Source: Acidimicrobiaceae bacterium (GTDB lineage: Bacteria; Actinomycetota; Acidimicrobiia; Acidimicrobiales; Poriferisodalaceae). Taken from it: DNA of 64,000 bases. Below are positions 3,139 to 22,110 of this stretch, piece after piece. Location: assembly GCA_002708935.1 (NCBI GenBank), contig PAPO01000024.1, positions 50,826 through 114,825 on the forward strand, given 5' to 3'. Every line of letters begins with the position of its first letter. The first letter of the stretch is position 1. The position numbers and the translations under genes are program-made. Under the pieces are notes generated by a model, which did no database searches, was not told where the DNA came from, and saw nothing but the letters and a program-made list of their open reading frames with translations.

Positions 3139-4035
3139 ATGTCGGTTCAACAAGGCGAATATTGCGGATTTCTCACAACGGTTGAGGAACCTGGAATTCT
3201 CGTAGTGACGTTCAACCGTCCAGAGAGCCTGAATGCATCTACTGCTGCAATGAAAAGGGATTTAGTTGAGTTGCTGACACAAACTCAAATGGACGACGCT
3301 ATCCGGATCGTTGTCTTCACGGGGCAAGGTTCGGCGTTTTGGGCGGGAGATGACCTAAAGGGTTACGGCGGAGACAGCGTCCAAGTGCCACAGATTCATC
3401 ATGGGCACCACAACCCCTCCGGCACCTACAACGGTTTGCGAACGATATCTCAGGCGGTAAACACCGCAGTTCGGAATCTCGACAAGATTTCCATCGCAGC
3501 AATAAATGGCTTCGCCATCCAAACAGGCTTCTCACTTGCTTTAGCCTGCGATTTCCGTATTGCTTCGAGGTCAGCAAAATTGGGAAGTGCAACACTCAGA
3601 TTTGGGCTGTTACCTGATGAAGGTGGCCAATGGTTGTTAGTGCAACATTTGGGAGTGGCGAAGGCAACCGACTTCATGATGCGTAAACGAATTGTTGACG
3701 GTGAAACAGCCCATGAGTTGGGGCTAGTACATGAGGTTGTCGATGATGACAGTCTGATGGATGAAACTCTGTCATTAGCTCGAGAACTAGCCGACGGGCC
3801 ACAAGTCGCGATGAGAATGCTGAAGCGCTCGATCCTTTTGGCAGCAGACTTAACATGGGATCAGTCGCTTGATGAGATAGCTGCGAAGACGGCCGTTACT
3901 GACCATCTACCCGATGCTCGTGAAGGTGCTGCAGCATTTATCGAAAAGCGTCAACCCCAATTCAATGGATGGTTAGAAGGTCGTGTCGACCCACCCATGG
4001 ATGGGCCTGCTCCATGGGAAGCTGACTCAGAGTAA
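3139..4035 (+). CDS. Enoyl-CoA hydratase/isomerase (crotonase) family protein
   Basis: 298 aa with the crotonase patterns FTGQGSAFWAGDDLK and AAINGFAIQTGFSLALACDFRIA. Confidence 0.8.
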   Translation: MSVQQGEYCGFLTTVEEPGILVVTFNRPESLNASTAAMKRDLVELLTQTQMDDAIRIVVFTGQGSAFWAGDDLKGYGGDSVQVPQIHHGHHNPSGTYNGLRTISQAVNTAVRNLDKISIAAINGFAIQTGFSLALACDFRIASRSAKLGSATLRFGLLPDEGGQWLLVQHLGVAKATDFMMRKRIVDGETAHELGLVHEVVDDDSLMDETLSLARELADGPQVAMRMLKRSILLAADLTWDQSLDEIAAKTAVTDHLPDAREGAAAFIEKRQPQFNGWLEGRVDPPMDGPAPWEADSE

Positions 4036-6164: not shown

Positions 6165-7664
6165 TTAAGTTGCAGTTTCATTCTCAGCGATCAGAACACG
6201 GACTTCGTGTTTCAATACTTTGCCCATCACGTTTCTCGGGAGCTGCTCCGTCCAGATCACCCGCTTTGGGTGCTTAAAGCGAGCGATTTGCCCATCGAAA
6301 AGTTGAAGAACAGCTTCGCTATTCTGTTCGGAACCCTCAGCGGCGACAGCTACGACTACGGGAATTTCACCCCAACGGCTATCGCTCACCCCCACGACTG
6401 TTGCCTCCGAAAGTAGATCACTTTCTGCAAGTACGTTTTCCAACTCAGCAGGGTAAATATTCTCTCCTCCAGAGATGACTACGTCTTTCTTGCGGTCGTC
6501 GATATAGAGCCAACCCTCGGTATCCATATGTCCGATATCGCCGGTGTGGAACCAACCGTCGGTTATTGACTCAGATGTGGCGTCGGGATTGCCCCAATAA
6601 CTCGTCAAAACATTTGGTCCGCGCACCCATAGTTCACCAGATTCTCCTGCCGCTACGTCAACGCCTTCATCGTTGACGATGCGAACGTCGCAAAGAGTTG
6701 CAGCTTTACCGCAAGAGCCAGGTCGTTGAGCAGCCTGATCGATTCTCAAAACCACTGCGGTTGGAGAGGTTTCGGTAGCTCCATAAACCTGACCTACAGA
6801 GATTCCGCGTTCGAAGAAGGGTCGAGTTGCCGCCTCTGGGATTGTCGACGACCCCGCCATGAGGCCCTTGAGGGACGATAGATCCGCTTCCGCGAATGCT
6901 GGGTGATTGGTTACGGCATTTAAAGTCGCCGGAACGAACAGAGACCAAGTGGGCTGCCACCTTTCGACATCTTTGAGCCACTGCCCGGGGTCGAAGGAAC
7001 TGTGTAGAAGAACTGATGCGCCTCCCATTAATGCGGGGAGTGTCTGAATGTTGAGTCCACCGACATGAAATAGGGGCAGAAAAGTCAGGAAGCGGTCATT
7101 GGAAGTTAAGTCGTGGGCATGGGCGCCATTGACAGCGTTGGCCGCCAGCGCACTTTGAGACAGGAGTGCTCCCTTGGGCGTTCCAGTAGTTCCGGAGGTG
7201 TATGCAAGTAAAACAGGGTCATCAGGCTGACCGGATCTAGGAGTTACCTCGATGGGCTCAGATTGAGAGACCTCAGCTAGTGAAAATACTGGTGTCTCTT
7301 CCGCAGCCTCTGCTGCATGTTCGGCGAAGTCCTTGTGAGCTACAACAAGCCTGGGCCCTGCGTCTTGAAGAATCCAACGATGTTCAGCGATGAGCAGGCG
7401 CGAGTTCAGAGGCAGAAAGATCGCTCCCAATCGGGAACAAGCGAGTAGTAACTCGATTGCTAGCGGGTGGTTTGGTCCTAGCCAAGCAACTCGATCGCCA
7501 GGTTCGACTTCATGCAGGTGTAACCAACCAGCTATTGATGCAATCCTTGTGGAGAGCTGCTGGTAACTGGTTTTGTCACCTTCGAACTCAACAGCGAGCG
7601 CGTCGGGTTGGTGGTCAGCCCACTTGTCTACCCATGATGCGAGATCCGATCCGTTACTCCACAT
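6165..7664 (-). CDS. AMP-dependent acyl-CoA synthetase/ligase
   Basis: 499 aa with AYTSGTTGTPKGA (AMP-binding P-loop), YGATE and GWFHTGDIG motifs. Confidence 0.85.
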   Translation of the reverse strand: MWSNGSDLASWVDKWADHQPDALAVEFEGDKTSYQQLSTRIASIAGWLHLHEVEPGDRVAWLGPNHPLAIELLLACSRLGAIFLPLNSRLLIAEHRWILQDAGPRLVVAHKDFAEHAAEAAEETPVFSLAEVSQSEPIEVTPRSGQPDDPVLLAYTSGTTGTPKGALLSQSALAANAVNGAHAHDLTSNDRFLTFLPLFHVGGLNIQTLPALMGGASVLLHSSFDPGQWLKDVERWQPTWSLFVPATLNAVTNHPAFAEADLSSLKGLMAGSSTIPEAATRPFFERGISVGQVYGATETSPTAVVLRIDQAAQRPGSCGKAATLCDVRIVNDEGVDVAAGESGELWVRGPNVLTSYWGNPDATSESITDGWFHTGDIGHMDTEGWLYIDDRKKDVVISGGENIYPAELENVLAESDLLSEATVVGVSDSRWGEIPVVVAVAAEGSEQNSEAVLQLFDGQIARFKHPKRVIWTEQLPRNVMGKVLKHEVRVLIAENETAT

Positions 7665-12412: not shown

Positions 12413-13378
12413 TCATTCGGAACTTAGGTTAATTTCCCAAAGCACCTGGTCTAAACAGTCTCCGGCCGACATTGCAGGAAAGCTGCAGGGACGTTCGGTC
12501 GAAATCGTTGATGGAACTGGAGACAGAATCGTCCAGGGGGTCGGGTGACAGAACTGAACGACGCTGAGCCGCCCCTCGTTTTGATTTGGATCGGCGACGA
12601 CTCGATGCCATCCCACGGGGATTAGACCGTTAGTCAACCTTTCAAGCATGATACCGGTGTTGATGATGACGTATCCGTCCGGTGGTGTTGCATCGACCCA
12701 TCGGTCTTCAATCTTGACCTGAAGTCCGCGACTAGTAGCTCTTGGTAGAGCTGTTATCAGATTGATATCTCCGTGTTCTTCTGCCCAAACATGACCGCCA
12801 TCCCCGGTTTTTGGGGCTTCGTTCATAGGTGGATAGTTGATAGCTCTGGTGAGATGGGACCCATCTTTCAGCATGGTGTCGAAGAAGCTCGCGTTCACGC
12901 CGATGCCGGTAGCGATTATTCGCAAAAAGCGAGTTTGGAGTTCCACAAGGTTTTCGTGAAAAGTCGACAAGATTTGAGCAGCTTCGGGAAGGTGGTTGGA
13001 AGGAAAGACTGGGTCACCATATCGATGCGGATATCGGGCACGCAGCGGATGCCCATTTGGTAGAGGTGCTCCCCAATTCAGCATCTCCTTCCAATCTGGG
13101 GTGTGAGACACTGCTGCTGTTTCAACCAACAAGCCTGTGTAACCGCTTTGGCCTCTGGAGCCGCTAGCTATGTATTCCTCTTTGGCCTCCAAGGGAAGAT
13201 TAAAGAACCTCGATAGAACGTCGTAAGTGTCGTCGAGCATTGCTTCGGAGAGGTCATGTTTGGTGTAGACGAACCCTGTAGCGAGACTCCGCATGACACC
13301 ATCTACTACTGCGAGACGCTCTTTGGTGCTTCCTTGTTCGAAAGCCAATAAGTCAACGTCGAGAATTTCATTCATCAT
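12413..13378 (-). CDS. 2OG-Fe(II) oxygenase, isopenicillin N synthase-like family
   Basis: 321 aa with the HxD iron motif in EEHGDINLITALP, a later GWHRV histidine, and RLSVVQF (2OG-binding R-x-S). Confidence 0.8.
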   Translation of the reverse strand: MMNEILDVDLLAFEQGSTKERLAVVDGVMRSLATGFVYTKHDLSEAMLDDTYDVLSRFFNLPLEAKEEYIASGSRGQSGYTGLLVETAAVSHTPDWKEMLNWGAPLPNGHPLRARYPHRYGDPVFPSNHLPEAAQILSTFHENLVELQTRFLRIIATGIGVNASFFDTMLKDGSHLTRAINYPPMNEAPKTGDGGHVWAEEHGDINLITALPRATSRGLQVKIEDRWVDATPPDGYVIINTGIMLERLTNGLIPVGWHRVVADPNQNEGRLSVVQFCHPTPWTILSPVPSTISTERPCSFPAMSAGDCLDQVLWEINLSSE

Positions 13379-13408
13379 GAGCCAAGGTATGTGTAATTCG
13401 CAGGGTTG

Positions 13409-13978
13409 TCAGTCAGTTTTTCCGGTTAACCAAAGTTCGTACCTCTCGGTGTCGGTCCAAGCCCCCGTCAATTCGTCGAATCTTTTTGCTGGTCCAAGCA
13501 TGAGCGAAGTGAGCCCGTCGCGTGCTTCTGAGCTAGACACCGAGTTCATGTTTTGTGGAAGAAGGAGTTCTTGGGTGGGAGGCGCTTCGAATGGTTGCCG
13601 AGGGACGATCGCAAGTTCAGGCAACGTTGCGAGGGCCGAATCACGCAACGCTGTATCACCTTCATAAAAAATTGGATCCTGTATCTGGTGCCATTTGTCA
13701 GCTCCCATTACTAACAAGTCGTAACCAACAGCCATATCTGCCAATAGTTGAGAGTCTGTTACACGAATTTGTAGCCATTCATGTTCAGCGGCTACCTCTT
13801 CCAATATTGCGATGCGATGTTCGAACCTCGGAATAGAAACATCCTCTTTAGCTAGAGCAACTCTGCTGACCGCCCAGACGACCTGTTCTATTTCGTGTTG
13901 GGCTATCACCGCCTCCGAAATAGCTAAATGCGCCACTGTCGGCGGATTGAATGATCCGGGATATATCGCAGTGGCCAT
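13409..13978 (-). CDS. Cytidylyltransferase-fold nucleotidyltransferase, NadD-like
   Basis: 189 aa with the GSFNPPTVAHLAI (GxFxPxHxxH) motif and a C-terminal SSSEAR (ISSTxxR-like) motif. Its start lies 1 nt after the stop of the J-domain gene. Confidence 0.65.
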   Translation of the reverse strand: MATAIYPGSFNPPTVAHLAISEAVIAQHEIEQVVWAVSRVALAKEDVSIPRFEHRIAILEEVAAEHEWLQIRVTDSQLLADMAVGYDLLVMGADKWHQIQDPIFYEGDTALRDSALATLPELAIVPRQPFEAPPTQELLLPQNMNSVSSSEARDGLTSLMLGPAKRFDELTGAWTDTERYELWLTGKTD

Positions 13979-13979
13979 A

Positions 13980-14687
13980 TCAGATACGTCTACCAGTCAA
14001 CGACCGCAGAGCTCTCGGGTTGCCGCCAAGTTTAATTTCGACATCCCTGTTGATTCCGTGCGCAAGGTTGTCCCACATCCGGTCAATCAATTGAGCGCAA
14101 AGGACATCGTCGTCACGCACCCCATCTGCCGAAGAACGACGCAGGAAGGGGATGCAGTAGGCGTTTAGGCCGATTAATGCCGAAGCTAATCCTAAGTCCA
14201 GAGGCGCTGCCCCTGCTTCGCGAGATAGCTGAACCCTGAGTTCTATATTTTCACCGAGAACCTGGATTATTGGCAGTGCGAGTTCCTCGTATGCCGCTCG
14301 AGGAACTTGGTGTCGATTGGATAACGCTTGGGTAGCACTTCGCGCTGCTTCGTCTCCGAGTCTCAATGTTTGGAGTCTTATTCCAGCGAACCAAGCGGCC
14401 TTTCTGTTCAGCTTTTGGGGAGGAGGGAACCGAGATCGGGTTTGTTTCGGAGATGGCGCAGTTTTCAAGACGCGATCATATTCAGCTCGACGACCTGGGT
14501 CAGACAAGACGAACCAGGCATCGTTAATCTGGCGCATTACAGCCGAATCACCAGACTGTCTATCGGGGTGATGGACAAGTGCTAGTCGTCGATAGGCACG
14601 TTGTAGAGACTCTTGAGTACTGCCAACTGGGACCCCTAATTGTTCGTACAACGATGGGTTGACCACCTTGCTCTTGGAATCGTCCAT
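13980..14687 (-). CDS. J-domain (DnaJ-like) protein with an uncharacterised C-terminal region
   Basis: 235 aa. The N-terminal J domain reads YEQLGVPVGSTQESLQRAYRRLALVHHPDR and includes the HPD tripeptide. There is no zinc finger or DnaJ C-terminal domain. Confidence 0.8.
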   Translation of the reverse strand: MDDSKSKVVNPSLYEQLGVPVGSTQESLQRAYRRLALVHHPDRQSGDSAVMRQINDAWFVLSDPGRRAEYDRVLKTAPSPKQTRSRFPPPQKLNRKAAWFAGIRLQTLRLGDEAARSATQALSNRHQVPRAAYEELALPIIQVLGENIELRVQLSREAGAAPLDLGLASALIGLNAYCIPFLRRSSADGVRDDDVLCAQLIDRMWDNLAHGINRDVEIKLGGNPRALRSLTGRRI

Positions 14688-14690
14688 AGG

Positions 14691-15749
14691 TCAGTTTCTC
14701 AGCGCGATATGTCCAGGGTCTCCTGGCTCCAACTCACCTATTACCGCTGCGAAGTGACCCACTTCTGTGAGTTCTGCAACAGCATCGACAGCAGCGGACG
14801 CGTCACAAGAGAATAGAAGGCCTCCCGAGGTTTGAGCATCGCAGAGAATGAGGCGCTCAGTAAAGGATCCGCCACTTAAAAATGGTTCAAGAAAATCTAG
14901 GTTTCTTTCGGTGCCTCCAGCCACGAAACCACCTTCAACCAGGTCATTAGTGCCAGGTAGAAGTGGAACCGATGTTGTTTCGACTGAGGCAGATAACCCA
15001 CTCGCTGATGCCAGCTCATAGAGGTGACCGAGGAGGCCGAACCCCGTAACGTCTGTGGCTGCTGAGGCCCCCACTCGAGAGGCAGTTTTGGCCGCCGAGG
15101 AATTGAGGCGAGTCATTTCTCGAACGCCCGCAAGGTAAACCTCATTTAATGAACCGTCTTGTGAAATGGCTTCAGGGTCGGAACGCTTTAAAGCTGTTGC
15201 CAATAAACCTGTTCCTATTGGCTTTGTTAGGACCAGAGCTTGACCCGCTTCACCTCCGCCATTGGTAAGAAGTTCTTCAGGTGCAACTTCGCCCACGATA
15301 GACATCCCGTACATTGGTTCAGGTCCATCAACGGTATGACCGCCGGCTACGACCCAGCCGCCCTCATCAGCAGCCATCTGACCTCCGATGAGGACATCGC
15401 CGAGGATCTCCAAGGCAAGTTCCTCCCTCGGCCACGCGACCAGGTTGAGTGCGAATAATGGCTCGCCTCCCATGGCATAAATGTCGCTGACGGCGTTAGT
15501 CGCGGATATCTGACCCCAGAGTTTTGGGTCATCAACTATTGGGGTGAAAAAGTCGGCTGTGGCAGCTAGAGCATTCCCATCTGAGCGTTGCCACACGGCA
15601 GCGTCGTCGCTATTTTCTGTGCCGACCAGAAGGTCGGGATGACTAGGATTTGGCAAGTGACGCAACACGTGCGCCAAGTCACTGGGACCGAGCTTGCAAG
15701 CTCAACCAGCGCCGTGGCTGTATTGGGTCAGTCGAATCAAACTTGTCAC
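14691..15749 (-). CDS. selD: Selenide, water dikinase (selenophosphate synthetase) SelD, selenocysteine-containing (in-frame TGA at 15702-15704)
   Basis: The track ORF 14691..15677 carries SelD body motifs (AVSDIYAMGGEPLFALNLVAWP, GGHTVDG) but lacks the N-terminal active-site loop. Reading upstream in frame on the minus strand gives VTSLIRLTQYSHGAG-TGA-ACKLGPSDLAHVL. This matches E. coli IRLTQYSHGAGCGCK with the TGA at the Cys17 position. The start is GTG 15749 or TTG 15740. Confidence 0.85.
15656..15683 (-). promoter_or_regulatory. Candidate SECIS-like hairpin downstream of the selD UGA
   Basis: Minus-strand AGUGAC(16 nt)GUCACU begins 18 nt after the UGA. An alternative inner stem GCGCA/UGCGU has a CGUGU loop. 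Seen by eye only and not folded computationally. Confidence 0.35.
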
Positions 15750-15772
15750 GCCACCACGGTAGTACCCAAGGA

Positions 15773-16702
15773 CTAGTTCACCGTATATGTGCTCATTGTC
15801 TCAAGGAAAATTTGCATTCCCTGATCGCGGTCAATTTTGTAAGCAACTTCGCAGTTGAGTGGTTGATCTCCCCATCCGCGTTGATCCACAACCGTCATGC
15901 CCCGTGTGTGCGCTCCCTCGGTTTCAACGGTTACGTTCCGAAGTTCGAACTCAAATAATTCCGGGTGAGTTATAGCAAGAACAGCGCATGGGTCGTGCAG
16001 AGGGACCCGCTGCCCGCGAGTTCTCTTCTGGTACGACATGAGATAAAAGTCGAAAAGATCGGCAGCGAAACTTGCTACTTGATTATTGATGCTTCGGAGG
16101 TCTGCGATGATTTGTTCATCAATACCGAATTCATGAGTGAGGTTAAGCCCAGCCATTCGAAACGGTTTTATACCAGCGCTAAAAACAATTGAGGCAGCAT
16201 GGGGGTCAGCCCATACATTGAATTCGGCTGTGGCGGTGACGTTACCCACTGTTGCGCTCCCACCCATGATCGATATGCCGGCAACGCGCTCGACTATGTC
16301 GGGTGCTTGTTGCACGGCTAAAGCAATATTTGTAAGAGGTCCGATGGGCACCAGCCACACGTCGTCATTGTCGCGAACGGTGTCAATGATGAAACGCACT
16401 GCATCTGAGCTTTTGGCAGAGCGTGTGACTGTTGGCCGGGATGGTCCATCTAATCCTGTTTTGCCATGGGCCTCTTCGGCATGTCTTGGCGGTAATAAAA
16501 TGGGTTTTTCGGCGCCTGCATGCACCTCAACGTCAAGACCAACAAGTTCTGTGAGGAGAAGAGCATTGTCGGTGGTTAAGTCCAACGGTGCATTACCTGA
16601 CACAGTCGTGATTCCTAGAATTTCGGTCAACTTGGCGGCCATCATGATCGCTACAGCATCGTCGTGTCCGGGGTCGCAGTCGATGATGATTTTGGGCTTC
16701 AT
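15773..16702 (-). CDS. Nucleoside hydrolase (IUNH family)
   Basis: Canonical N-terminus MKPKIIIDCDPGHDDAVAIMMA (DxDxxxDD motif). I prefer ATG 16702-16700, which forms an ATGA overlap with the upstream gene's stop, over the track start at 16744. Confidence 0.85.
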   Translation of the reverse strand: MKPKIIIDCDPGHDDAVAIMMAAKLTEILGITTVSGNAPLDLTTDNALLLTELVGLDVEVHAGAEKPILLPPRHAEEAHGKTGLDGPSRPTVTRSAKSSDAVRFIIDTVRDNDDVWLVPIGPLTNIALAVQQAPDIVERVAGISIMGGSATVGNVTATAEFNVWADPHAASIVFSAGIKPFRMAGLNLTHEFGIDEQIIADLRSINNQVASFAADLFDFYLMSYQKRTRGQRVPLHDPCAVLAITHPELFEFELRNVTVETEGAHTRGMTVVDQRGWGDQPLNCEVAYKIDRDQGMQIFLETMSTYTVN

Positions 16703-17415
16703 ATTCTTGCCATCCCGGGGCCGTTCACGTCCGTGTCTCCCCAATAGTGGGGCAGTCTTAGGTACCCAACTCTTGGTAAGTCAAGCGCGGGTTTCAGTCC
16801 TTGATGAAGTTTGAGTCTTTGGATGGAACGAACGTGACTCAACATTTCGTAAAAAACCATCCAAAGGGAGCCCTCTAGGTCATAGGTGATACTGCTGCCC
16901 TGTGGATCGTCGGTGCTTGCCCCTCTCGGAAGGGTGGTAATTACGTACTTCCAAAACTCGGTGCCTCTAACCGTTTGCGTTTCCGATCTGAGCAGTTCTA
17001 TGGGCTGTTCTTCGACGAGTCTTGTCAGCCAACCGATCCCCAAGTTTAAATGGCTCAAGATGTCCGGTATTTGCGAGAATAAATCAGTATCGAGAACTCG
17101 GTCCCATTTGTTGTTAGGTCCCATCTGATGCTCGGCCCAGTTAATTGGGTCGGGAATGTCACCGTTGGGCCATAGAAGGTGGCCCGCTCGTCTTTTAGTG
17201 AACACAAGGGCATCCCATGCGATATGAGAGACTTGTCTTCTGCAGGACCACCACATCCATTCTTTTTCGGGCGAGGTGTCGTGGAAATCCAGTTGGTCGT
17301 CTGACAGGTCTGCCAGTTCGGCTTCTACCCAATCGACGATGTGGGGGTACCAAGGCATTGCCCCCGACTCTGAAGAAGTTGGCATCTCGAGGATGCTGGG
17401 GTCTGTTAGAGCCAT
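16699..17415 (-). CDS. DinB-like (DinB_2 / mycothiol-transferase-like four-helix bundle) family protein
   Basis: 238 aa with the His-containing helices WSCRRQVSHIAWD and FYEMLSHVRSIQRL, typical of DinB-fold metal-binding proteins. Assigned by eye. Confidence 0.5.
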   Translation of the reverse strand: MALTDPSILEMPTSSESGAMPWYPHIVDWVEAELADLSDDQLDFHDTSPEKEWMWWSCRRQVSHIAWDALVFTKRRAGHLLWPNGDIPDPINWAEHQMGPNNKWDRVLDTDLFSQIPDILSHLNLGIGWLTRLVEEQPIELLRSETQTVRGTEFWKYVITTLPRGASTDDPQGSSITYDLEGSLWMVFYEMLSHVRSIQRLKLHQGLKPALDLPRVGYLRLPHYWGDTDVNGPGMARI

Positions 17416-17452: not shown

Positions 17453-20308
17453 TTAGCTAGGTAGTTCTTCGAAGGAACGCGGGCTTGGACAGTTACAGAC
17501 GAGATTCCTGTCACCGTGAGCGCCATCAATTCTGCTTACAGGTGGCCAGTATTTGTCCGCAGAGCTTGAAGGGAGCGGGAAGGCGGCTTCTTGTCGCGTG
17601 TACGGATGACGCCAATCGTCTTTTAGTAGGTCTTCGGCTGGGTGTGGAGCATTTACGAGAGGATTGTCTTCGGCGGGCCATTCACCTGATTCGATTCGTG
17701 CAATTTCTCTTCTGATTTCGATCATGGCATCGCAAAAGCGGTCGATCTCTTGCTTTGACTCACTTTCGGTTGGTTCAACCATCAATGTGCCCGGCACTGG
17801 GAAGGACATCGTTGGGGCATGAAAACCGTAGTCAATCAGTCTCTTTGCTATGTCTTCAACGGTTACGACCTCTGATAGCTGTCTCAGGTCCAAGATGCAT
17901 TCATGGGCGACCAATCCGTTTTGTCCGCGATATAAAACTGGATAGCTGTCGTCTAGCCGCAGTGCGATGTAGTTGGCATTTAAAATCGCGACTGCCGTGG
18001 CGCGCTGCAGCCCTTCGGCTCCCATCATCGCTATATACATCCATGGAATAGGGAGGATTCCTGCAGACCCCCATGGAGCTGCTGCTATGGCTCCACTTCC
18101 GGTTACTGGTCCAGCCTCGGGGACCAGCGGGTGATTGGGCAAGAAAGGAGCTAAATGTTCTCTTACCGCGACCGGGCCTATTCCCGGCCCCCCTCCTCCG
18201 TGAGGGATGCAGAAGGTTTTGTGGAGGTTGAGGTGGCTTACATCTGCTCCGAACTGTCCTGGTGCGGCAAGTCCGACCAGGGCATTTAAGTTTGCTCCAT
18301 CAACGTAGACCTGGCCGCCGGCTTCGTGGATTGTTCGACAGATCTGGACGATCCCTTCCTCAAATACCCCATGTGTCGACGGGTATGTGACCATTATCCC
18401 GGCAAGAACATCTTCATACTCAGCAACTTTGACTTGTAGGTCGTTGAGATCGATATCGCCATCATGATCGCATTCGACAACGACGACTTTGAGTCCTGCC
18501 ATAACCGCTGAAGCAGCGTTAGTCCCATGCGCTGAGGAAGGAATAAGGCAGACATCTCGTTGATCTTCGCCTCGGGACTCGTGATAACGCTTAATGGCTA
18601 GAAGGCCAGCGAACTCTCCTTGCGAGCCAGCATTAGGTTGTAGCGAAATTTCGTCATATCCAGTGCACGCGAGCAGCCAGTTGCTTAGCTCTTCAATTAG
18701 TTCCATGTAACCCCTTGCTTGGTCTAGAGGTGCGAAGGGATGGATGTCCGCGAACTCTGGCCAAGTAATCGGTGTCATTTCACTCGCGGCATTGAGTTTC
18801 ATTGTGCAACTACCGAGAGCAATCATGCTTCGGTCCAAAGCTATGTCCTTGTCAGACAGTCGGCGGATGTATCGGAGCATTTCGGTCTCTGAGCGGTAGG
18901 TATTAAAAACTGGATGATCCAGGTAGCTGGAAGAACGTTTTAGACGTTGAGGTATTCCTTTTTGGGCGTCAAAGGTTTGTGGGCTTTCGCTGTCGTTTAA
19001 GAATGCCTGAACTAAGTGATCAAGGGTCTCCGCATCGCAGGTTTCGTCGAAGGTCACAGCAACGCTGTCTGAGTCAACGAACCGAATATTTATTCCCTCT
19101 CCGAGAGCGCGTTGCACAACTTCTGCTGCCTCATCTGGAACCTGAATGGTAAGAGTGTCGAAAAATGCCTGATTAGAAATAGTGAACCCAGCAGATTCAA
19201 GTTTTGCGGCGAGGGCGGCAGTAAGGCTGTGGACCCGTTGAGCGATCTTCTTCAGACCATCGGGGCCATGGTAAACGGCGTACATAGATGCAATGACTGC
19301 AAGTAAAACCTGAGCTGTGCATATATTGCTCGTGGCCTTTTCGCGACGGATATGTTGCTCACGAGTTTGCAGTGCCAATCGTGTTGCTGGGCGACCTCCA
19401 CTGTCGACTGAGACACCAACTAACCGACCTGGGAGAGCTCGTTTGTGTTCTTCTCGTGCCGCAAGGTAGCCGGCGTGGGGACCCCCAAAGCCGAGTGGAA
19501 CCCCGAAACGTTGTGAAGTTCCTACGACTAAATCAGCCCCCAATTCTCCGGGAGGGGTCAGAAGGCAGAGGGCCAAAAGATCCGAAGCGACGCAAAGAAT
19601 TCCGTCATTTCCGTGGACTGCTTCCGCGATGTGGCTGATATCGCGAATGTCACCTGAAGAGCCCGGGTATTGGACTAAAACTCCGTAGCAATCGGCGGGA
19701 TCGAGATCTTGCCAGGCGTTACCAACTTGTATGTCGATGTCCAACGCTTCGGCACGAGTTCGGACCACATCGATGGTTTGCGGGTAACAGTCCGAATCGA
19801 CGAAGAATTTTTGTCCACTAGCTTTTGTTAGCCGCCTCGCCATGGTCATTGCCTCAGCTGCAGCAGTGCTTTCATCCAGCAACGAACTGTTAGATATCTC
19901 CATCCCGGTAAGGTCACAAACCAGTGTTTGGTAGTTGAGAAGAGCTTCCAGCCTGCCTTGGCTTATTTCTGGTTGGTAGGGCGTGTAAGCGGTGTACCAA
20001 CCAGGGTTCTCGAGGACTCGACGGACCACCACGGCGGGTGTCACTGTGTTGTGATAGCCGAGCCCTATCAATGATTTCATTGGCTTGTTCAAACTTGCTA
20101 TTCGTTGAATTTGGGCAATGGCATCAACTTCAGTTAGAGGATTCGGAAGATTAAGTGGTTCGTGTGTGCGGATTGCAGCGGGGACAACGGCAGTGCACAG
20201 CTCCTCGAGGCTGAGATAACCGGTAGCTGAGAGCATCAAAGCTATTTCGTCGTCGCTTGGGCCAAGGTGCCGGACGAGAAAGTCGGGTTGAGGGTTAAGT
20301 TCTTGCAT
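17453..20308 (-). CDS. gcvP: Glycine dehydrogenase (decarboxylating), glycine cleavage system P protein, single-chain form
   Basis: 951 aa with [14 protein letters not shown] and the PLP-lysine motif [18 protein letters not shown]. Confidence 0.95.
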
Positions 20309-20317
20309 GTGTAAGTC

Positions 20318-21451
20318 TCAATTTCGGCTGTAGTTGTGGGGAACGAATGGCAGAGCGCTGATTTGGCAAGGGACCTCTTTGCCCCGTACTTCAGCAACCA
20401 AAGTGCTTTCAGAGTGCGAAATGATTGGGTCGACATAGCCCATGGCAACTGGTCGATCACAGGTGGGTCCGAAGCCTCCGCTGGTGACAATTCCGACTTC
20501 CAGGCCTTCGTCAGTTCGTAGTTTTGCCCCGTCTCGGATCGGCCGCTTAGTTAGAGAGGAAATTCCTACTCGAGTTCTGTCAGTGCCACCTGAGAATTGA
20601 GCAAGTATGACCTCGGCGCCAGCAAAAGTAGGCTCGTCGCGTCGGCGGCGGGGGATTGTCCATCCGAGACGAGCCTCCACTGGAGTAATGGTTTCGTCGA
20701 GTTCATGGCCGTAAAGACATAGTCCGGCTTCAAGCCGCAGACTGTCCCTGGCCCCTAGACCACAAGAGCTGACGGTCTCGTCATGAAGGAGCATTTCTGC
20801 GAGTTTCACAGCATCGTCAGCCGGAACGATTAGCTCGAAGCCGTCTTCTCCGGTGTAACCGCTACGGCTGATAGCACATTCGATTCCGTCAATTGAGAAC
20901 TGGCCCGAAGCCATGAAGGTCAGATCTGCGATTGTTGAGTCGAAGCCTGACAGAACTGTCACCGCTTTTGGCCCCTGGAGTGCCACTTGAGCGAGGTCCT
21001 CTCGGATATGGATTTCCGTGTAATCGCCAAGAGCTGTTTCGATGCAGTGAAGATCACTCTCCACTCGTGAGGCGTTTAAAACCAATCGAAGTTGGGTGTT
21101 GCCTCTCGAGATGATGAGGTCATCGATGACACCTCCTTGGTCATTAGTTAAGAGCGCGTACCTCAGACGACCCACTTCGAGGTCTTGGATGGAAGCGGGT
21201 GAGACAAGTTCCAGCGAATCGATGACTTCAGGCAGTGAGGTCCCTGGTTTGGGAACGAGATCAACGATCCCCATATGGCTGACATCAAAGAGCCCTGCGG
21301 AGGAACGCGTAGCTAGATGCTCGTCGAGGATGCCGCCGAAACTGAGAGGCAATTCAAAACCAGCGAACGGCGCAAATTTCGCTCCTCGGTCGCGATGCAG
21401 CGAATGCAGGGGCGACTGTTTGGATATTCGAGTTTCGGAAGGTTCGCTCAT
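20318..21451 (-). CDS. gcvT: Aminomethyltransferase, glycine cleavage system T protein
   Basis: 377 aa with GLFDVSHMG and RSGYTGEDGFEL motifs. Lies 9 nt upstream of gcvP and directly downstream of the glycine riboswitch. Confidence 0.95.
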   Translation of the reverse strand: MSEPSETRISKQSPLHSLHRDRGAKFAPFAGFELPLSFGGILDEHLATRSSAGLFDVSHMGIVDLVPKPGTSLPEVIDSLELVSPASIQDLEVGRLRYALLTNDQGGVIDDLIISRGNTQLRLVLNASRVESDLHCIETALGDYTEIHIREDLAQVALQGPKAVTVLSGFDSTIADLTFMASGQFSIDGIECAISRSGYTGEDGFELIVPADDAVKLAEMLLHDETVSSCGLGARDSLRLEAGLCLYGHELDETITPVEARLGWTIPRRRRDEPTFAGAEVILAQFSGGTDRTRVGISSLTKRPIRDGAKLRTDEGLEVGIVTSGGFGPTCDRPVAMGYVDPIISHSESTLVAEVRGKEVPCQISALPFVPHNYSRN

Positions 21452-21753: not shown

Positions 21754-22110
21754 CTACTTGAGAAAATCCGCTATGCGGTCCTTTGGGCGGCCAATTATCG
21801 CATTGTCGGACCTAACGAGAACCGGGCGCTGCATCAAAGCTTTGCGTTCAAGTAGGAGTTCCACGACGGCTTCGGGGTTATCCACATAGTCATCGGGGTC
21901 TAGCCCCAATTCTTTGAATTTCGAGTCCTTGCGCACTAGGTCCTCTACTGGGTCTTCTAGGACAGAGGCAATGTGTTCTAAAGTCTCGCGATCTGGCGGT
22001 GACTTCATATAGAGGACGACATTTGCATCAACGTTTTCCTCCTCAGCGACCGCTAAGGCGTTTTTGGACGAACCTCAATGGGGGTTGTGGTAGATCGTGA
22101 CTTTAGGCAT
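21754..22110 (-). CDS. arsC: Glutaredoxin-type arsenate reductase ArsC homolog, selenocysteine-containing (in-frame TGA at 22075-22077)
   Basis: The track ORF 21754..22008 (84 aa) is only the C-terminal two thirds. In-frame extension gives ATG 22110-22108, preceded by GAGGAG with a 5 nt spacer, then MPKVTIYHNPH-TGA-GSSKNALAVAEEENVDANVVLYMKSPP.... R773/E. coli ArsC reads ITIYHNPACGTSRN...ILYLENPP, so the TGA sits on catalytic Cys12. The three ArsC arginines appear conserved (LVRK, MQRPVL, IGRPKD). Confidence 0.8.
22041..22058 (-). promoter_or_regulatory. SECIS-like hairpin downstream of the arsC UGA
   Basis: Minus-strand CCUUAGC-GGUC-GCUGAGG forms a 7 bp stem (one G-U pair) with a 4 nt GGUC loop. 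It starts 17 nt after the UGA, so spacing and the G/U-containing apical loop resemble bacterial SECIS elements. Confidence 0.55.

Follow-up and report, generated by a model that had tools for sequence, protein, structure and literature searches.

A selD gene with a conserved in-frame UGA very probably encodes a selenocysteine-containing selenophosphate synthetase in Acidimicrobiales

Introduction

In the window analysed here, a stretch of 64 kb with a G+C content of about 52%, the open reading frame track lets selD begin with TTG and run over 14691..15677 of the minus strand, an ORF shorter than the full frame and without the N-terminal glycine-rich loop in which the catalytic Cys or selenocysteine (Sec) and then a Lys are found (Cys17 and Lys20 in E. 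coli). Upstream of this ORF the frame remains open, the sole interruption being a TGA at 15704-15702. The locus raises the question of whether this TGA ends translation or is read as Sec, making selD itself a selenoprotein gene. On the comparative evidence given below it is very probable that the product of selD (15749..14691, minus strand) is a selenophosphate synthetase containing selenocysteine, and that the UGA is recoded by way of a hairpin downstream.

The selD frame and its product

The features of the gene are as follows.

14691..15749, minus strand: complete coding sequence of selD, 352 codons with Sec16 among them and then the stop; predicted product selenide, water dikinase (selenophosphate synthetase)
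15747..15749, minus strand: GTG start codon of selD, invariant in the window and the 15 closest relatives
15702..15704, minus strand: in-frame TGA, putative Sec16 codon, aligned with E. coli Cys17
14691..14693, minus strand: TGA stop of selD; the next gene begins at 14687, 4 nt on

From GTG 15749 the gene reads VTSLIRLTQYSHGAG up to the TGA, followed by A-C-K-L-G-P-S-D-L. Profile and E. coli comparisons were made with the 352-aa product in which U was written as C. Aligned to TIGR00476, as the preliminary description of this locus had proposed, the extended product scored 360.9 bits (cut-off 125) over model positions 1-310 of 311, and it reached 354.4 bits against NF002098 (cut-off 299). When compared with E. 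coli SelD (PDB 3u0o) it gave an E value of 1.2e-80 with an alignment that begins at residue 5, in which IRLTQYSHGAG-U-A-C-K stands opposite IRLTQYSHGAG-C17-G-C-K20 and which displays the ATP/Mg-binding motifs DDAAV, ADFF, ATNAVSD and TDVTGFG. The glycine-rich loop is present only if the TGA is read through. The preliminary description was thus right in noting that the track ORF lacks the catalytic loop and in placing the TGA at the position of E. coli Cys17, and its coordinates for the ORF, the TGA, a palindrome and an AGUGAC/GUCACU pairing all proved accurate. The full-length, above-cut-off matches to TIGR00476 and NF002098, together with the N-terminal loop, place the product in the SelD family, its enzymatic activity being predicted.

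Two start codons had been considered for the extended frame, GTG 15749 and TTG 15740. We assign the start to GTG 15749, because this codon is unchanged in the window and 15 relatives while TTG 15740 is TTA in one of them (L009). A longer upstream start was rejected, as no conserved in-frame ATG, GTG or TTG lies upstream in the relatives.

Conservation of the TGA and selection on the flanking codons

Comparison of orthologous loci for Cys versus UGA at this codon had also been proposed. All 21 Acidimicrobiales relatives examined, with SelD identities from 60 to 99%, have TGA here; these comprise genome loci L001-L015 and six loci that were reached via truncated proteins (L036, L037, L040, L042, L043 and L044; five distinct sequences, 60-74% identity). 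TGC stands at the homologous codon in 21 Cys-type loci, namely two Acidimicrobiia-like loci of about 60% identity (L045 and L046) and 19 proteobacterial loci, so that the position forms a Cys/Sec pair.

The preliminary description had staked its reading on the conservation of the residues upstream of the TGA in close relatives, and conserved they are. Among 16 sequences, synonymous variation was found in 9 of the 14 codons from 2 to 15, and an amino-acid change in codon 3 only; the pooled pN/pS was 0.11 for these codons, as compared with 0.20 for codons 17-40. The low pN/pS and the almost exclusively synonymous variation argue that the segment upstream of the TGA is translated in the selD frame, as one piece with the remainder of the gene.

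A candidate recoding signal downstream of the UGA

Three structures near the UGA were compared, with 500 shuffles, in alignment A2, whose 21 sequences reach from 9 nt ahead of the TGA to 75 nt beyond it.

15658..15676, minus strand: bSECIS-like hairpin UGGCGCA-CGUGU-UGCGUCA, 7-bp stem and 5-nt loop; 98.6% of cells paired
15656..15683, minus strand: AGUGAC...GUCACU, the SECIS candidate of the preliminary description, overlapping the conserved hairpin; 81% of cells paired
15690..15703, minus strand: 14-nt palindrome GAGCTTGCAAGCTC, embedding the GA of the UGA; without comparative support

The 7-bp hairpin, which is also the RNAalifold consensus, spans 25-43 nt after the UGA, with its apical loop beginning at 32 nt. 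It contains two compensatory pairs, a value matched by 0 of 500 shuffles: in L009 a G-C pair has become U-A, and in L042 a C-G pair has. Switches between G-U and G-C and between U-A and U-G were also seen, and in the aligned sequences the loop is always x-G-U-x-x. A conserved lower stem was looked for and none was found. The hairpin sits in the conserved peptide L-A-H-V-L-R-H, and part of its conservation for this reason reflects coding constraint. Its predicted stability (-8.7 kcal/mol), which exceeds that of 99.3% of 5000 synonymous recodings encoding the same peptide and drawn from the window's own codon usage, argues that the hairpin is more than a consequence of that peptide. In the bacterial SECIS (bSECIS) model a stem of 4-16 bp carries a loop of 3-9 nt at a UGA-loop spacing of 16-37 nt, with a G in the first two loop positions that is usually followed by G or U (PMC13188914). 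With 7 bp, the loop CGUGU, a spacing of 32 nt and covariation at two pairs, the selD hairpin agrees with this model. The Cys-type loci L045 and L046, only two such controls, do not have the exact 7-bp hairpin (5 of 7 positions in L045), and both are GC-rich and can fold into other hairpins in that region, so that a loss of the SECIS in Cys forms is at most suggested.

The preliminary description had located a possible SECIS at 15656-15683, and a conserved hairpin does overlap that region; the pairing it proposed, of AGUGAC (15683-15678, beginning 18 nt after the UGA) with GUCACU (15661-15656), was rejected as a conserved structure, since pairing extends to only 81% of cells and 12 of the 21 sequences disrupt pair 3. 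Its two compensatory pairs were reached by 215 of 500 shuffles, and its proportion of paired cells by 0 of 500. The perfect palindrome around the UGA is likewise present where it had been reported. The hairpin that it forms with the UGA (15711-15680) has 88.6% of cells paired and no compensatory pairs, 253 of 500 shuffles equal the observed value, and third-position changes (for example GCC and AAA) break its pairs without compensation. The palindrome and the 13-bp minimum free energy hairpin were rejected as a signal, there being no covariation and the shuffles doing as well; the palindrome is most plausibly a side effect of codon choice.

A second putative selenoprotein gene

About 6 kb from selD lies a second gene with a bridged TGA, spotted when neighbourhoods were compared and a small PF03960 (ArsC) gene was found upstream of gcvT in the relatives.

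21754..22110, minus strand: ArsC-family putative selenoprotein gene (glutaredoxin-type arsenate reductase family), with TGA 22077-22075 at the catalytic Cys position
22041..22058, minus strand: bSECIS-like hairpin CCUUAGC-GGUC-GCUGAGG, with the stem 16 nt and the loop 23 nt after the UGA

The track ORF covers 21754..22008 only (84 aa). The extended frame has a GAGGAG Shine-Dalgarno sequence ahead of its ATG at 22110 and reads MPKVTIYHNPH, the TGA, and then GSSKNALAV. The product, with U as C, aligned to TIGR00014 over positions 1-114 of 114 with 94.7 bits, which is under the cut-off of 106; relatives of the gene are listed under PF03960, and homology places it in the ArsC/Spx superfamily. The TGA falls at what we take to be the catalytic Cys12 of plasmid R773 ArsC (IYHNPACGTSRN). 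It is kept in L037, L040 and L042, and in L045 the Cys-type homologue carries Cys there. The states of the two genes are linked, SelD and ArsC both having Sec in four lineages and both having Cys in L045.

In four relatives (L037, L038, L040 and L042) the stem of the ArsC hairpin is CCUUGGC/GCCGAGG, an A-U pair having been replaced by G-C through two synonymous changes. The hairpin has a predicted energy of -9.1 kcal/mol and is more stable than 99.5% of synonymous recodings. Its GGUC loop presumably matches the loop of the E. coli fdhF SECIS. The window was scanned for further TGA-bridged genes, and none was convincing besides the ArsC-like gene.

Selenocysteine decoding and the proposed mechanism

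That two unrelated genes share a TGA at a catalytic Cys position followed by a co-varying hairpin with a G-U loop speaks strongly for Sec decoding by the organism. Neither selA, selB nor any tRNA gene was found in the window, and selA, selB and tRNA-Sec were found neither within about 10 kb beyond either window end nor in the Acidimicrobiales loci examined; among the 30-odd related loci searched overall, the only matches to these genes adjoin selD in the proteobacterial loci L028 and L029. A 99-nt 'tRNA-Val' given by ARAGORN in L046 was treated as a false positive, having no Rfam support. The presence of selA, selB and selC in the genome is assumed.

We propose that translation of selD would begin at GTG 15749, probably on a leaderless mRNA, and that the UGA at codon 16 would be read as Sec. 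The 15676-15658 hairpin would act as a bacterial SECIS that recruits SelB·GTP·Sec-tRNA(Sec); by analogy with the established bacterial pathway, this complex would bind the hairpin loop and deliver Sec to the UGA. Sec16 would then stand for E. coli Cys17 in a glycine-rich N-terminal catalytic loop G-A-G-U-A-C-K, and gene callers, halting at the UGA, report an N-terminally truncated protein of 324-328 aa. The claim of the preliminary description that selD is a Sec-type selenoprotein gene is thereby supported by homology, conservation of the TGA, selection upstream of it, the downstream hairpin and a second selenoprotein gene.

Alternative explanations

It could be argued that the TGA is a real stop, that a functional truncated SelD starts at TTG 15677 or another internal codon, and that the 15 codons upstream are either left untranslated or read as a short peptide of their own. 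Proteins of 324-328 aa are indeed what the ORF track and public gene calls give, and TGA ordinarily terminates other ORFs in the window. Such a product would however lack the glycine-rich loop that bears the catalytic Cys/Sec and Lys, and the 15 upstream codons are conserved as amino acids and lie in frame with the remainder of selD in all 21 relatives, the Cys-type relatives carrying the same peptide without interruption; we hold this explanation to be extremely unlikely. If the TGA were an error of sequencing or assembly, or if selD were a pseudogene inactivated by a recent mutation, the in-frame stop itself would be accounted for and nothing else. That the same TGA should occur in 21 relatives whose assemblies are independent and whose identities go down to 60%, in an intact gene with purifying selection acting to either side of the TGA, leaves this reading with virtually no probability, and we regard it as already refuted by the comparative data.

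Reassignment of UGA throughout the genome (genetic codes 4 or 25) is at odds with stop-codon usage. TGA ends 10 of the 34 long ORFs in the window, that of selD included, where the next gene follows 4 nt on, and the ArsC-like gene aside no convincing TGA-bridged gene was seen. Since TGA is used in this way, UGA is an ordinary stop in this genome and is not reassigned; the chance of reassignment is practically nil, and the idea is already refuted by the observed usage. The UGA might also be read through without SelB and a SECIS, by a near-cognate Cys or Trp tRNA or by a Cys-charged tRNA with a UCA anticodon, which would yield a Cys or Trp SelD. It would fit this proposal that selA, selB and selC were not seen in the window, its flanks of about 10 kb or the Acidimicrobiales loci examined. 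Against it stands the occurrence, in two unrelated genes, of a TGA at a catalytic Cys position with a conserved G-U-loop hairpin at SECIS distance and compensatory changes, a combination that is the signature of SelB-dependent recoding; Trp, moreover, would be non-catalytic at position 16. Read-through of this kind is judged to be very unlikely. Sec is the probable residue at codon 16, and the 15676-15658 hairpin the probable binding site of SelB.

Initiation of selD

No Shine-Dalgarno sequence was found before GTG 15749, and the region upstream holds another element.

15756..15761, minus strand: TACCGT, of the form TANNNT and similar to a -10 element, located 6 nt before the GTG

All 23 loci examined, those with unrelated upstream genes and the Cys-type ones among them, have such a hexamer 6-7 nt ahead of the inferred selD start, and the TANNNT columns are invariant in alignment A1. 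In actinobacterial promoters a TANNNT this close to the start has the geometry of a -10 element that drives a leaderless mRNA. This suggests that the selD mRNA may be leaderless. A scan with the sigma-70 consensus gave no match on the minus strand near selD. A hairpin that would sequester the start, formed by an upstream CCGTGG and the CCACGG of codons 12-13, was considered and dropped, since L007 has an uncompensated CCTTGG; the upstream CCGTGG motif reads better as the -10-like TANNNT element.

Among 29 other ATG-start ORFs of the window, five show the same TANNNT pattern, and an SD-like 4-mer is present in only six.

A leaderless mRNA with a UGA at codon 16 might constitute a selenium-sensing autoregulatory switch, an idea that we put forward as improbable. 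The leaderless start would place the Sec UGA only 45 nt from the 5' end of the mRNA, and when selenium is scarce translation would end at codon 16, which would switch off SelD and, through polarity, the conserved downstream genes (a J-domain protein, a NadD-like protein and a 2OG-oxygenase). SelD may in this manner be autoregulated by selenium.

Relatives and annotation

The SelD of the window is 99% identical to that of the marine metagenome-assembled genome (MAG) Acidimicrobiales MED-G95, and 73-93% identical to those of other marine Acidimicrobiales or 'Acidimicrobiaceae' MAGs (MED-G01, MedAcidi-G3 and others). Genes at the window edges occur on metagenome contigs labelled marine, with run accessions that we take to be those of Tara Oceans runs. 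The closest database homologues of SelD are almost all 324-327 aa long with about 92% query coverage, the pattern expected when a gene caller stops at the in-frame TGA; in the five truncated entries that were examined in DNA, each starts after a TGA.

The practical value of these results lies in fixing truncated database entries of an abundant marine clade, in which SelD is called without its catalytic loop and the neighbouring ArsC-like gene is cut in the same manner. Because both calls are truncated at the UGA, pathway reconstructions for these marine Acidimicrobiales should include the Sec-decoding trait. The locus adds one more lineage to the well-established view of SelD as one of the chief selenoproteins in ocean bacteria, and it raises no new question.

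Comparison with known systems

Sec-containing SelD has been known since 1996 from Haemophilus influenzae, and the hypothesis that synthesis of SelD needs its own product dates from the same year (Guimaraes et al. 1996, as cited in bioRxiv 10.64898/2026.04.03.716425). Sec-type SelD is among the most widespread bacterial selenoproteins (PMC1794560), and with 357 members in the GOS marine metagenomes it is one of the most abundant marine selenoprotein families (PMC2398784). ArsC-like selenoproteins are also known (PMC1794560, Tables 3 and 4; 'ArsC 1' and 'ArsC 2' in PMC2398784). The ArsC-like gene described here has in common with those published the ArsC fold and a predicted Sec in place of the N-terminal catalytic Cys, and differs in that it falls below the TIGR00014 cut-off. 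An explicit literature report of a Sec-type SelD in marine Acidimicrobiales of the MedAcidi or MED-G95 kind was searched for, and none was found.

In Actinomarina a Sec-type SelD, selA, a divergent selB and selC have been described and ybbB is absent; its SelD was predicted as a selenoprotein by deep-Sep, with the SECIS undefined there (bioRxiv 10.64898/2026.04.03.716425). Like the organism studied here Actinomarina is a marine actinobacterium with a SelD predicted to be a selenoprotein; it belongs to a different order, and its SelD has the N-terminus MRLT and 342-346 aa, as against VTSLIRLT in the window. Both organisms presumably belong to the class Acidimicrobiia.

When compared with the SECIS of E. 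coli fdhF and bSECIS elements in general (PMC13188914), the selD hairpin shares a stem-loop 3' of the UGA, a small loop with G and then U, and a spacing within 16-37 nt, whereas its primary sequence is unrelated and its spacing of 32 nt is near the far limit. With the known Sec-type SelD proteins of H. influenzae and the GOS metagenomes, the gene shares the family, a UGA at the Cys17 position, a hairpin in the coding region and a marine habitat. The motif is U-A-C-K here and C-G-C-K in E. coli, and the SECIS sequence is lineage-specific, but there is no difference in kind: selD of the window is an ordinary member of the well-known Sec-type SelD class, and its recognition is a correction of annotation and no discovery.

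A second hidden selenoprotein gene

Besides selD, the window carries a gene of the ArsC family which, judged from its sequence, is a second hidden selenoprotein gene, and a riboswitch lies between it and the glycine-cleavage genes:

21754-22110, minus strand: ArsC-family gene, TGA at the catalytic Cys position
22077-22075, minus strand: the in-frame TGA of this gene
22041-22058, minus strand: SECIS-like hairpin of this gene, with a GGUC loop
21574-21676, minus strand: glycine riboswitch aptamer (Rfam RF00504, 63.8 bits)
20318-21451 and 17453-20308: gcvT-gcvP

The ORF track covered only the C-terminal 84 aa of the ArsC-like gene. The TGA is kept in three Acidimicrobiales relatives with a Sec-type selD (L037, L040 and L042), and the gene of L045, an Acidimicrobiia-like locus with a Cys-type selD, has the Cys form. 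In the same three relatives the ArsC-like gene calls are 88-101 aa long, cut short in the same way as those of SelD. Nearly all public SelD entries for the clade, including the matches to the window protein (P0001-P0041) and others, are 324-327 aa, about 92% of the true protein, having systematically lost their N-terminus at the Sec codon. Given its position between the ArsC-like gene and gcvT-gcvP, the riboswitch presumably controls the glycine-cleavage genes.

An MsrB (SelR, PF01641) gene at the left edge (1 to ~310, minus strand) is incomplete, as it crosses the window boundary. It appears to be of the Cys type, since the complete gene on matching contigs is an uninterrupted call of 135 aa (L050, 11469-11876).

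The start and neighborhood of selD

A TANNNT hexamer was found upstream of the selD start (15756-15761, minus strand), and such a hexamer lies 6-7 nt before the start codon in all 23 loci compared (the window, L002-L015, L036, L037, L040 and L042-L046); no Shine-Dalgarno sequence precedes selD. Together, the hexamer and the absent Shine-Dalgarno sequence suggest that the selD transcript may be leaderless. Among the other ATG-start ORFs of the window the TANNNT pattern occurs at 5 of 29, and an SD-like 4-mer at only 6 of 29.

The genes around selD are arranged as follows:

12413-15749, minus strand: selD cluster, order conserved in L037, L040, L042, L044 and L045
13980-14687, minus strand: J-domain protein gene, starting 4 nt past the selD stop
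13409-13978, minus strand: NadD-like nucleotidyltransferase gene, following the J-domain gene
12413-13378, minus strand: 2OG-Fe(II) oxygenase gene, following the NadD-like gene
16699-17415, minus strand: 238-aa conserved protein, between gcvP and a nucleoside hydrolase gene

The order selD, J-domain, NadD-like, 2OG-Fe(II) oxygenase is common to Sec-type relatives and the Cys-type L045. The 238-aa protein, which has no match in Pfam or NCBIfam, occupies the same position in L037, L040, L042 and L044. Downstream of the Cys-type selD of the Acidimicrobiia-like locus L046, ARAGORN called a 99-nt 'tRNA-Val(cac)' (12589-12687); it has no Rfam match, its sequence is GC-rich and probably coding, and the call is most likely a false positive.

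Two proteobacterial loci offer a different arrangement. In Dyella sp. (L029, ~3382-3945 in unconverted minus-strand coordinates, and 7048-7144) a Cys-type selD adjoins selA, selB and tRNA-Sec (UCA), and in L028 (~2380) a Cys-type selD adjoins selB. Unlike these, the Acidimicrobiales loci have selD outside any cluster with Sec machinery.
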